The notes under the pieces are model-generated. The model was not told where the DNA came from. It did no database searches and saw only the letters and a list, made by a program, of their open reading frames with translations. Of a stretch of DNA of 53,208 bases, positions 25,613 to 26,615 are shown piece by piece (the first letter of the stretch is position 1; every line of letters starts with the position of its first letter). Both the position numbers and the translations under genes were made by a program. Where the stretch lies: the IMG/VR virus record IMGVR_UViG_2671181011_000016; one strand, written 5' to 3'. This DNA comes from a virus. Its lineage: Duplodnaviria; Heunggongvirae; Uroviricota; Caudoviricetes.

Positions 25613-25696
25613 TTAATATTTGTTGATGATATATACGCAAGCCACAAAACTTGCGCAGTATGTTAATACTTCCAACCAGTCGAATAGCTCTTTCAT
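25613..25696 (-). CDS. micro-protein P11 (27 aa, single TM)
   Basis: MKELFDWLEVLTYCASFVACVYIINKY; RBS GAAGGG. Confidence 0.5.
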   Translation of the reverse strand: MKELFDWLEVLTYCASFVACVYIINKY

Positions 25697-25706
25697 TGTT
25701 TACCCT

Positions 25707-25778
25707 TCACATAATAGAAAGCGCCCAGGTAATAAGGACGATAGCCAAAACCATATAGATAAAATCTGACTCTCTCAT
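25707..25778 (-). CDS. micro-protein P10 (23 aa, single TM)
   Basis: MRESDFIYMVLAIVLITWALSIM; RBS AGGATGG. Confidence 0.5.
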   Translation of the reverse strand: MRESDFIYMVLAIVLITWALSIM

Positions 25779-25853
25779 GTTGTCCATCCTGCTTACGCGA
25801 AGAAAACGATAACAACTAACAGCGAACTTATAGCTATGATTAAGAAATCACTG

Positions 25854-25928
25854 TCAGACATTGATAATAAACCCCACAATTACAACCGCTGCGATACATA
25901 CGAATAATACAGCTTCGATAGTTTCCAT
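25854..25928 (-). CDS. micro-protein P9 (24 aa, single TM)
   Basis: METIEAVLFVCIAAVVIVGFIINV; RBS AGGTGA. Confidence 0.5.
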   Translation of the reverse strand: METIEAVLFVCIAAVVIVGFIINV

Positions 25929-25936
25929 ATATTCAC

Positions 25937-26005
25937 CTATTGAGTCAGTGCGATCATAGTGAGAACAATTGCGACAATCAGGAAAAAGAAATCAAGCCAT
26001 TTCAT
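25937..26005 (-). CDS. micro-protein P8 (22 aa, single TM)
   Basis: MKWLDFFFLIVAIVLTMIALTQ; ATGA overlap with P7 stop; RBS GGGAG. Confidence 0.5.
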   Translation of the reverse strand: MKWLDFFFLIVAIVLTMIALTQ

Positions 26006-26082
26006 TTTTTAAACTCCCGATACACATCAACAGCAATGACTACAACTACAGCCACCAGCAATAGCATTTCGTATGCGTTCAT
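26002..26082 (-). CDS. micro-protein P7 (26 aa, single TM)
   Basis: MNAYEMLLLVAVVVVIAVDVYREFKK; ATGA overlap with P6 stop. Confidence 0.5.
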   Translation of the reverse strand: MNAYEMLLLVAVVVVIAVDVYREFKK

Positions 26083-26177
26083 TTGATGCTACCCATAACA
26101 AGGCCGATAATGATAATTATGGCGACAATGCCCACCATCATTCCGAACATAATCGCCAGTAATTCGAATATATCCAT
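26079..26177 (-). CDS. micro-protein P6 (32 aa, single TM)
   Basis: MDIFELLAIMFGMMVGIVAIIIIIGLVMGSIK; RBS AGGTGA; inside the longer track ORF 26079..26282. Confidence 0.5.
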   Translation of the reverse strand: MDIFELLAIMFGMMVGIVAIIIIIGLVMGSIK

Positions 26178-26185
26178 GCCGTCAC

Positions 26186-26260
26186 CTATACAACATTCTT
26201 CAACCACAGATACATGATGACGGCGAGCGTTGAGCACCATATGAGATCGTAAATACTCAT
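26186..26260 (-). CDS. micro-protein P5 (24 aa, single TM)
   Basis: MSIYDLIWCSTLAVIMYLWLKNVV; RBS GAAGGTG. Confidence 0.45.
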   Translation of the reverse strand: MSIYDLIWCSTLAVIMYLWLKNVV

Positions 26261-26271
26261 AATGAACACCT

Positions 26272-26346
26272 TCAGCTTTCAATGAATATCATGATCGCCA
26301 GCCATACGGCTACGCATAAGAAAAGAATAACGAGCGGGTCTACCAT
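26272..26346 (-). CDS. micro-protein P4 (24 aa, single TM)
   Basis: MVDPLVILFLCVAVWLAIMIFIES; RBS AAAGGTGAG; start overlaps P3 stop. Confidence 0.5.
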   Translation of the reverse strand: MVDPLVILFLCVAVWLAIMIFIES

Positions 26347-26438
26347 AACTCACCTTTACCAAATAGAATTACGATAATCAGTTCAGTTATAAAGGCAGCG
26401 ACGAACAACCACGCAAGGCATAAATCAATAAAGTCCAT
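26340..26438 (-). CDS. micro-protein P3 (32 aa, single TM)
   Basis: MDFIDLCLAWLFVAAFITELIIVILFGKGELW; RBS GGGGTGAG. Confidence 0.5.
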   Translation of the reverse strand: MDFIDLCLAWLFVAAFITELIIVILFGKGELW

Positions 26439-26446
26439 GCTCACCC

Positions 26447-26542
26447 CTAACATTTACTCTTTGTGGCTATTAGCACAGCGATAATAAAACCCACCAGGAA
26501 TACAGAAACGCCGATCAATCCGGCGATAACGTAAGCGTCCAT
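26447..26542 (-). CDS. micro-protein P2 (31 aa, single TM)
   Basis: MDAYVIAGLIGVSVFLVGFIIAVLIATKSKC; RBS GGGGAG. Confidence 0.5.
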   Translation of the reverse strand: MDAYVIAGLIGVSVFLVGFIIAVLIATKSKC

Positions 26543-26547
26543 ATCAT

Positions 26548-26615
26548 TACTCCCCAACCAGCAATATTACAGCCGCAGCCATTCCGATAAATAAACCTAA
26601 CAGGAAAGTAACCAT
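26548..26615 (-). CDS. micro-protein P1 (22 aa, single TM)
   Basis: MVTFLLGLFIGMAAAVILLVGE; RBS GAGGGTGA; ATG 2 nt after the stop of the HExxH gene. Confidence 0.5.

Follow-up and report, generated by a model that had tools for sequence, protein, structure and literature searches.

Twelve tandem genes for predicted single-helix membrane micro-proteins between the lysis and terminase genes of an mEp021-group temperate phage

Small single-helix membrane proteins form a recognised but under-annotated class, most known examples of which are isolated genes. As a general rule, the known bacterial representatives act by binding larger membrane proteins (PMC11188072). We describe here a locus at which a dozen candidate genes of this kind stand side by side. 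It occupies positions 25613-26615 of a 53,208-nucleotide stretch of tailed-phage DNA (Caudoviricetes; IMG/VR record IMGVR_UViG_2671181011_000016), the whole of which is called the window below, and it lies between a homologue of the phage gene gp49 and the gene for the small terminase subunit (TerS). An earlier note on this DNA had counted eleven micro-genes in the interval. Translation of the minus strand gives twelve ATG-started open reading frames (ORFs) of 22-32 codons each, so that the count has to be raised by one, whereas the coordinates hold, the strand being minus, and the proposed peptide size of 22-32 residues fits all 12 units. Sequence comparison makes it very probable, in our judgement, that these are real, translated genes for membrane micro-proteins.

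For comparison we used 51 loci, made up of 43 IMG/VR genomes (anchored on TerS), seven GenBank phages and the window; 50 of the 51 keep the gp49-TerS interval, and the genome counts below refer to these 50. Where a single locus has to be told apart it is given by its number (L006, L012 and so on). The units of the window are listed here with the distribution of their families (omega is dN/dS, the ratio of non-synonymous to synonymous rates; nt, nucleotides).

Unit A, 26615-26547, minus strand: 22 amino acids, MVTFLLGLFIGMAAAVILLVGE; family in 33 of 50 genomes.
Unit B, 26542-26447, minus strand: 31 amino acids, MDAYVIAGLIGVSVFLVGFIIAVLIATKSKC; 43 of 50 genomes, 26 variants.
Unit C, 26438-26340, minus strand: 32 amino acids, MDFIDLCLAWLFVAAFITELIIVILFGKGELW; rare, 3 of 50 genomes.
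Unit D, 26346-26272, minus strand: 24 amino acids, MVDPLVILFLCVAVWLAIMIFIES; core, 48 of 50 genomes; omega 0.23; 7-nt overlap with C.
Unit E, 26260-26186, minus strand: 24 amino acids, MSIYDLIWCSTLAVIMYLWLKNVV; 32 of 50 genomes.
Unit F, 26177-26079, minus strand: 32 amino acids, MDIFELLAIMFGMMVGIVAIIIIIGLVMGSIK; 23 of 50 genomes; omega 0.16; two GxxxG motifs.
Unit G, 26082-26002, minus strand: 26 amino acids, MNAYEMLLLVAVVVVIAVDVYREFKK; core, 48 of 50 genomes; ATGA overlap with F.
Unit H, 26005-25937, minus strand: 22 amino acids, MKWLDFFFLIVAIVLTMIALTQ; core, 48 of 50 genomes; ATGA overlap with G.
Unit I, 25928-25854, minus strand: 24 amino acids, METIEAVLFVCIAAVVIVGFIINV; 36 of 50 genomes.
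Unit J, 25861-25793, minus strand: 22 amino acids, MSDSDFLIIAISSLLVVIVFFA; 32 of 50 genomes; 8-nt overlap with I.
Unit K, 25778-25707, minus strand: 23 amino acids, MRESDFIYMVLAIVLITWALSIM; 13 of 50 genomes.
Unit L, 25696-25613, minus strand: 27 amino acids, MKELFDWLEVLTYCASFVACVYIINKY; most conserved, 49 of 50 genomes; two allelic types.

All three reading frames are used among the 12 units, each of which has its own ATG and its own Shine-Dalgarno (SD) sequence, and the stop-to-start spacings from gp49 through TerS are +2, +4, +8, -7, +11, +8, -4, -4, +8, -8, +14, +10 and +10 nt. The ATGA linkage described earlier is found at F/G and G/H; the C/D and I/J overlaps are of 7 and 8 nt, and the other units are separated by gaps of 2-14 nt. 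An acidic residue in the N-terminus, taken in the earlier note to be general and to stand at positions 3-6, is present in 11 of the 12 units and at positions 2-6. The exception is unit A, the sole unit without an acidic N-flank, which starts 2 nt past the gp49 stop and carries a GxxxG motif; GxxxG-like motifs occur in units A, B and F. In unit B the N-flank is acidic and the C-tail basic. Unit K has an in-frame upstream ATG at 25787, which is without an SD and is not conserved, and unit L, the least hydrophobic of the array, stops 10 nt ahead of TerS.

The number of such ORFs in this interval is far above chance. A strict filter, which demands an ATG, an SD of 4 nt or more, a mean hydropathy no lower than 1 and a length of 18-45 amino acids, retains 9 ORFs in the array region on the minus strand and 0 on its plus strand. 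In 2000 shuffles of the region that preserve its dinucleotides the mean is 0.29, and no shuffle yields more than 3; elsewhere in the window, both strands taken together, 6 ORFs pass the same filter. The 12 starts have a mean anti-SD duplex energy of -5.3 kcal/mol (range -3.7 to -8.0), whereas all 1967 ATGs of the window average -1.8 kcal/mol (Mann-Whitney test, p=3e-6); the flanking bona fide genes have energies of -5.5 to -9.3 kcal/mol. The strong SD that had been attributed to every unit is thus well above background, but its strength is uneven; across the array families it is strongest in unit H (mean -8.1 kcal/mol). Reading frames, starts and stops are conserved in the 50 related genomes, which goes beyond conservation of the DNA alone, and a long ORF spanning the array is found in none of the relatives. 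The use of three frames, the separate SD and ATG of each unit and the gain and loss of whole cassettes likewise speak against one frameshifted long gene, an explanation that had been raised as one that would overturn the prediction.

We then counted substitutions by the Nei-Gojobori method along the minimum-spanning tree of each family, the input being intact, modal-length copies only, a choice that biases against seeing disruption. The pooled omega in the called frame is 0.24 (466 synonymous and 378 non-synonymous differences), as compared with 0.99 and 1.50 in the +1 and +2 frames and 0.79 and 1.85 in rc0 and rc2 on the opposite strand; the third antisense frame, rc1, has its wobble position in common with the called frame and gives 0.34. 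Purifying selection, which had been proposed as a check, is thus seen at 0.24 versus 0.79-1.85 in the four control frames and 0.34 in rc1. The changes are distributed over the three codon positions as 224/131/490, and the omega of every one of the 17 families tested falls in the range 0-0.49. With the synonymous rate taken as 1, and uncorrected for transition/transversion bias, I/L/V/M/F interchanges have a rate of 0.26, other membrane-compatible replacements one of 0.23 and charged or strongly polar changes one of 0.09. Since even the I/L/V/M/F interchanges are held at 0.26 of the synonymous rate, selection acts on the particular sequence of these peptides, beyond their hydrophobicity. The shuffle test, the SD enrichment, the frame-specific omega and the conservation of starts and stops all support genuine genes, in agreement with the earlier opinion that the array is not noise.

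The Kyte-Doolittle 19-residue maxima of the units are 1.5-3.1, with 11 of the 12 above 1.6 and L borderline at 1.51, and the runs free of D, E, K, R, N, Q and H are of 13-26 residues per unit, so that a membrane-spanning segment is predicted for them by hydropathy alone. Net charges range from -3 to +1. Across the families, 14 of 18 have an acidic N-flank, and the C-flanks are neutral or basic.

Among the related genomes the gp49-TerS interval varies from 318 to 1154 bp and contains 3-13 micro-ORFs, which cover 68-95% of its length. The 454 unit calls amount to 177 distinct peptides and fall into about 18 families. Four of these are near-universal: L occurs in 49 of the 50 genomes, and D, G and H in 48 apiece; the accessory families absent from the window are X (18 of the 50 genomes), M (10), N (10), O (3), P (2) and Q (1). 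The order N/A/P-B-C/O-D-E-Q-F-G-X-H-I-J-K-M-L is invariant, and 35 distinct presence/absence architectures are found on it. Units I and J co-occur across genomes (r=0.83); X and K are never found together (0 of 50 genomes, Fisher test, p=0.0016). Where a unit is absent, the ATG of the next unit takes the position of its ATG, and the 3' end and SD of the upstream unit are re-used, which places the breakpoints of gain and loss within a few nt of the start codon. The 504 junctions have a median spacing of 8 nt; 26% of them overlap and 91% are of 15 nt or less.

The array had been presented as paralogous throughout. When the Smith-Waterman scores of family representatives were compared with those of composition-preserving shuffles, clear paralogues were found (X and K, z=10; G and O, z=9; H and X/K, z=6; E and O, z=4), and 16 of 153 family pairs reached p<=0.01 against 1.5 expected, an excess that is inflated by the shared architecture of a polar N-terminus and a hydrophobic core. 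The N-terminal pattern M-x-x-(hydrophobic)-[D/E]-(hydrophobic) is present in 14 of 18 families. Paralogy thus stands for the subgroups X/K/H and G/O/E and possibly for F/M/C/I, the remaining units sharing architecture only, and descent of the array from a single paralogous family is only partly supported.

The mode of evolution may be read from several loci. One genome (L026) has a G-K junction with H-I-J deleted, and it seems well supported that an X/K crossover removed these units by unequal recombination between paralogues. Family O (MNAYDLIW...) looks like a G/E chimera, and in more distant relatives there are further new families and a variant of E whose N-terminal half is new. Natural fusions of units also occur, as a 60-residue B-D protein with two helices (L012) and as a 55-residue read-through of F into the G region (L035). 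Decay is rare and concerns mainly accessory units: the J start is changed from ATG to ACG in one lineage, and E has lost its ATG to ATA in L025 and suffered a 1-nt frameshift in L011; the hydrophobic core is weakened in one variant of unit G. On these comparisons, evolution of the array by duplication, unequal recombination and cassette-precise loss is well supported.

The array is restricted to a narrow lineage. Its region is about 90% identical to that of the mEp021 group of temperate Escherichia coli siphophages, of which mEp021, mEp010, mEp013, mEp044, mEp515, mEp554 and MagusPhagus were matched; this is the 'mEpimmI' group as defined in PMC11893012 (2025). Of 5426 complete E. coli genomes, 35 contain the array in a prophage. 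In tblastn searches of 50,697 phage records, units B and L matched only members of the mEp021 group; unit G gave no match, probably through low-complexity masking, and this is not counted as absence. An exhaustive phmmer search with unit B against 1.84 billion representative proteins returned four matches only, at 77-79% identity. Unit M (47 amino acids, absent from the window) forms 24 clusters, none of them below 70% identity, and in the most divergent of these (P0144) the one context checked is the same slot.

The gene upstream of the array reaches further than the array itself. Over its N-terminal 125 residues, within which the invariant HExxH and N-E-T-Y both lie, gp49 is a homologue of Orf129 from the P22-like phages ST64T, L and epsilon34 (43-44% identity). 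The Orf129 gene takes the same place in those phages, with the lysis genes on one side and TerS on the other, and the N-terminal domain of gp49 is also 35.5% identical to HkcC of HK620. No micro-transmembrane (micro-TM) array is found in ST64T, phage L, epsilon34 or HK620. With the same caller, the 1.6 kb downstream contain 0 micro-TM ORFs in 27 and one in 1 of 28 P22-like IMG/VR loci, as compared with 6-10 in four additional mEp021-like genomes. As P22-like phages carry the homologue in the same slot without the array, the HExxH neighbour is not an obligatory partner. In these phages the slot between lysis and terminase genes also holds variable accessory genes (GIY-YIG nuclease, DUF2560, Orf129). 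The 121 database homologues of gp49 all come from E. coli or Caudoviricetes sources, and no relative was found in the species-representative genomes of GTDB.

Searches with the array peptides against PHROGs, Pfam and NCBIfam gave sub-threshold generic TM resemblances only, with no sequence match to the small-protein families of NCBIfam and Pfam. In PADLOC neither the six units searched nor gp49 had a match at E<=1, so that no known defence component was recognised. With no family match, and with no description found in the accessible literature, including PMC11893012, the earlier view that this is not a described phage module stands. As regards particular classes, nothing rose above the curated Pfam and NCBIfam cut-offs for the type I toxin families Ibs, Ldr, Hok and TisB, and the spacing of -8 to +14 nt, with no same-strand promoter-like site, is not that of independent transcription units. 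No unit matches a holin family in PHROGs or Pfam. The array is not adjacent to the endolysin, from which Rz/Rz1, a hairpin and gp49 divide it, and it does not co-vary with the holin allele. The helix of leaderless bacteriocins and phenol-soluble modulins (PSMs) is amphipathic and usually cationic, whereas the cores here are uniformly hydrophobic and the N-flank is acidic.

Two candidate identities were rejected. Antiholin mimicry was set aside as no unit resembles the transmembrane domains (TMDs) of the holin, the signal-arrest-release (SAR) endolysin or Rz (best z=3.5) and there is no co-variation with the holin. A ribosomally synthesised and post-translationally modified peptide (RiPP), bacteriocin or PSM, an idea that came from the protease-like gene beside the peptides, was dismissed on account of the wrong charge and amphipathicity and of the P22-like gp49 homologue that stands without such peptides. 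An Rfam scan of 25000-27600 gave only two matches at E<=1, both sub-threshold, to an S15 leader and to a CRISPR direct repeat, and these are judged to be due to chance; the S15 leader match, at the L/TerS junction (25573-25655, minus strand), scores 20.2 bits against a gathering threshold of 39.5 (E=0.1).

The features around the array are the following.

28674-28656, minus strand: strong intrinsic terminator, ahead of the holin.
28631-28431, minus strand: class II (pinholin-like) holin, 66 amino acids, matching Phage_holin_2_3/2_4.
28430-27939, minus strand: SAR-type, R21-like endolysin, 163 amino acids, whose N-terminus is a typical SAR domain.
27951-27481, minus strand: Rz with an embedded Rz1 lipoprotein ORF.
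27248-27234, minus strand: terminator-like hairpin between Rz and gp49, the same as TERM_6 and T11 of the mEp021 and mEp013 records.
26618-27202, minus strand: gp49 homologue, 194 amino acids, with HExxH, directly upstream of the array.
25117-25602, minus strand: TerS (Pfam Sf6_terminase, E=5.7e-37), directly downstream of the array.

The placement of the array between the lysis genes and the terminase, as first described, is therefore correct, with the terminator-like hairpin and the HExxH gene intervening between Rz and the array. The cassette itself, with its SAR endolysin and a class II holin of two TMDs, belongs to the phage-21 type, and the terminator that precedes it recalls lambda tR', which lies downstream of the late promoter. 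The hairpin at 27248-27234 is weaker than that terminator. No sigma-70-like promoter site lies on the same strand inside the array, and four weak antisense promoter-like sites within it are not above shuffle expectation. With a strong terminator ahead of the holin and a second hairpin ahead of gp49, the layout resembles a late operon read by antitermination; the mEpimmI group is Nus-dependent and has an N-like antiterminator (PMC11893012).

HExxH and the residues N-E-T-Y of gp49 are unchanged even in the homologues from P22 and HK620; the protein is zincin-like by motif only. One database source labels a homologue as 'PolyVal metallopeptidase'; there is no Pfam match, and the AlphaFold2 model, built on a shallow alignment, is weak, with a predicted local distance difference test (pLDDT) score of 60, and retrieves nothing at E<=0.001 from the PDB with Foldseek. 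In the mEp021 group the protein has in addition an acidic segment, long and helical, and a C-terminal tail that is very basic (KKPAKKGKRKPKAK...).

Three rearrangements touch the borders of the array. In mEp013 (L006, 3113-3598) an HNH endonuclease gene sits at the array head, in place of the C-terminal part of gp49 and of units A and B. Five genomes (L017, L020, L021, L031 and L050, at about 3836-4000) have an ORF for a soluble, acidic protein of about 50 residues (MVSNEELKMADEIRKALDAAENNETVY...) between L and TerS, which indicates that the slot accepts non-membrane cassettes too. In the prophage of E. coli M15 (L052, 2690-3205) the array is followed by an unrelated protein of 171 residues and by a different gene at the position of the large terminase, which indicates that the array travels with the lysis/gp49 side and not with the Sf6-type terminase. 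Elsewhere in the window, the early region contains a pair of small, SD-led, single-TM ORFs (41926-42157, minus strand) of 35 (MKKIAMLSVAVAVAAVYLSASLYITVAIVKLITDM) and 38 residues (MRVDKNTVKAVFCVVAFVFMVVIAGATAAIISYIGGVM), whose N-termini are basic, a charge polarity opposite to that of the array peptides; further isolated small-TM candidates lie at 11098-11012 (minus strand) and 47092-47193 (plus strand).

Annotation has largely passed over the locus. The interval is unannotated in the GenBank record of the archetype mEp021, and the RefSeq Prokaryotic Genome Annotation Pipeline (PGAP) leaves a 930-bp 'gap' at the array of E. coli N921 and calls only one unit, of 47 residues, in strain M15. Records annotated with PHANOTATE call some of the units, often with wrong, longer starts. 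The lesson is that about 0.5-1 kb of DNA shown as 'intergenic' in RefSeq and in the archetype record may be filled with such genes, several starts of which are mis-called in the PHANOTATE-based records.

How might these peptides work? Our proposal is that twelve tandem, translationally coupled genes in a late operon would each encode a single-pass inner-membrane micro-protein, made late, alongside the lysis and packaging proteins. Since the N-flank is acidic and the C-flank neutral or basic, the peptides would, by the positive-inside rule, insert into the cytoplasmic membrane mostly with the N-terminus out and the C-terminus in, possibly by a YidC-type route as in the analogous case of the Pf3 coat protein. 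Once there, they may serve as sequence-specific TM-helix ligands of larger membrane proteins, and each unit would be an accessory factor that the phage can do without and that is in part redundant with others. Selection against conservative replacements, the GxxxG-like motifs of A, B and F and the mode of action of known small membrane proteins all suggest late action by specific helix-helix binding, and we lean slightly towards it. Several points weigh against this proposal. With omega at 0.09 in TerS and 0.06 in gp49, the array is 3-4 times more relaxed than its neighbours; units L, E and G are only marginally hydrophobic on a biological scale; the restriction of the input to intact copies and the uncorrected transition/transversion bias both bear on the selection estimates; and translation, insertion and topology are alike read off the sequence.

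The biological role is a more speculative matter. In systems made up of a pinholin and a SAR endolysin, depolarisation of the membrane releases the endolysin and sets the timing of lysis. As the phage has such a cassette and the array follows it, presumably in the same transcript, lysis timing, through the membrane-energisation or pinholin step, is a natural candidate for the primary role of the peptides, and our leading one, although we hold it weakly. Against it stand the near invariance of the holin (median 98% identity, 12 alleles) while the array content turns over, the lack of correlation of this content with the holin allele (r=-0.08), the dissimilarity of every unit to the TM segments of holin, SAR endolysin and Rz, the hairpin and gp49 that separate the array from the lysis genes, and the P22-like phages, which have a gp49 homologue after the lysis genes and no array. 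A tentative alternative, to which we give slightly less credit, is that the array is an arsenal used in conflict, with units that bind different inner-membrane targets and whose turnover reflects an arms race. Such targets might be the DNA-entry components of competing phages (superinfection exclusion), the membrane effectors of abortive infection or other defence systems (counter-defence), or the lysis machinery of a rival prophage. The 35 architectures among 50 genomes, the families, at least 18 in number with more in divergent relatives and each with sequence-specific constraint, the mutual exclusion of X and K, as expected of alternative versions of one function, and the uncoupling of array content from the alleles of the flanking genes would all fit, as would the variable accessory genes of the same slot in P22-like phages. 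Yet exclusion and anti-defence genes are usually expressed in the lysogen or early, which is not expected of units with no promoter of their own and tightly coupled to a late operon; no PADLOC, Pfam or PHROG match points this way, and the superinfection-exclusion work in PMC11893012 concerns the repressor and a lipoprotein, not the array region. One might speculate further, and with still less assurance, that the array is a combinatorial, recombination-shuffled library of TM-helix 'binders', each tuned to a different inner-membrane protein (a host defence effector, a transport or injection component on which rival phages rely, or lysis machinery), and that its content decides the outcome of conflicts between phage and host or between phages in gut E. 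coli.

The remaining explanations dispense with specific targets. The peptides might be a generic hydrophobic load that, like type I toxins (Ibs, TisB, Hok), builds up in the membrane and dissipates the proton-motive force or saturates insertion or quality control without specificity, so that dose alone matters. Their size, hydrophobicity and tandem multiplicity do resemble those of type I toxin peptides (for general context, PMC2887945), a copy number of 3-13 is what a dosage rheostat would show, and a pinholin/SAR-endolysin system is triggered by depolarisation; but conservative I/L/V/M/F swaps would not then be selected against, nor would the order of units be fixed and four specific units near-universal, and with a net charge of -3 to +1, an acidic N-flank, no Pfam type I toxin match, and no antisense RNA family, promoter enrichment or independent transcription units found, we regard this as improbable. 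That the short ORFs merely deliver ribosomes to the terminase genes or set their level, the peptides being functionless by-products of a translational-coupling relay, seems more improbable still. It would account for the tight or overlapping spacing through to TerS, with the L stop 10 nt before the TerS ATG, and for the presence of L in 49 of 50 genomes, but not for amino-acid-level selection in every family; moreover, a strong SD (-7.1 kcal/mol) belonging to TerS itself follows the L stop, an unrelated soluble ORF intervenes between L and TerS in five genomes, arrays of 3 to 13 units serve the same terminase, and P22-like relatives with an Sf6-type TerS manage without a relay. Finally, the missing annotation in the mEp021 record and in RefSeq PGAP, together with the tendency of AT-rich DNA to give hydrophobic ORFs by chance (PMC11188072), could suggest that there are no genes here at all, and that the ORFs have arisen by accident in a T-rich, non-coding spacer or are remnants of a single longer gene broken by frameshifts. 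The comparative data effectively refute this least credible of the alternatives, through the shuffle test and SD enrichment, the frame-specific omega and wobble-position bias, the starts and stops conserved in 50 genomes with cassette-precise indels, the use of three frames with no long ORF in any relative, and the zero or one such ORF per locus in the 28 control loci.

Whichever role is correct, the locus is a natural experiment, with a dozen genes side by side, at least 18 families, 35 natural combinations and clear signs of sequence-specific selection, in a group of cultivable, genetically tractable E. coli phages that are common in the human gut. It makes it possible to test of what use TM peptides of 22-32 residues can be to a virus, how genes of this kind arise, duplicate and pass between phages (by start-codon-precise indels and unequal crossovers), and whether a short TM helix can inhibit or modulate a membrane protein specifically.

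Several described systems resemble the array in part. The type I toxins (Ibs/Sib, Ldr/Rdl, Hok/Sok, TisB/IstR, ShoB/OhsC) are likewise tiny, hydrophobic, single-helix peptides, membrane-active and often tandemly duplicated; the array differs from them in having no promoter of its own and no antisense RNA family that we could find, in its coupling to an operon, in the acidic N-flank and in its sequence-specific constraint. The coat protein of Pf3 and the procoat of M13 have a single helix flanked by an N-tail that is short and acidic and a C-tail that is basic; units B, E, F, G, L and M show this same distribution of charge, and the Pf3 coat protein is the textbook precedent for an N-out/C-in charge pattern with YidC-type insertion; these are virion proteins of filamentous phages, 44-50 residues long and without sequence similarity to the array, and a tailed phage has no role for a membrane-stored coat. 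The single-gene lysis proteins (E of phiX174, Sgl of single-stranded RNA phages) are, like the units, short, fast-evolving and single-TM, and they bind specific host membrane enzymes. Unlike the array, which accompanies a full holin-endolysin-spanin cassette and has a dozen units, they are the sole effectors in phages without holin and endolysin. Holins, antiholins and holin-like TM clusters (actinophage cassettes, PMC9671378; T4 RI, PMC11413866) are small, late, sequence-diverse and near the lysis genes, as the array would be if its late expression is correctly deduced; typical holins, however, are proteins of at least 60 residues that combine 1-4 TMDs with a charged tail in the cytoplasm, a phage encodes one to three of them, and this phage already has a class II holin. 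The closest likeness in size and form is to the bacterial small membrane proteins of up to 50 residues (Storz-type, such as AcrZ, MgtS, MgrB, KdpF, CydX and YohP) and to the families of hydrophobic, intergenic small ORFs of Enterobacteriaceae (PMC11188072), which share with the array a length of 20-50 residues, one helix, an SD, purifying selection and a history of being missed by annotation, but which are dispersed single genes with their own regulation, in contrast to 12 (3-13) chained units in fixed order with cassette variation. Taken individually, then, the units would belong to the known class of small single-TM proteins, whose sequence-testable features they display. What appears to be new, and was not found in the accessible literature, is their assembly into a colinear 12-gene array, drawn from a pan-array of at least 18 slots with start-codon-precise turnover, in the late operon of a temperate phage.

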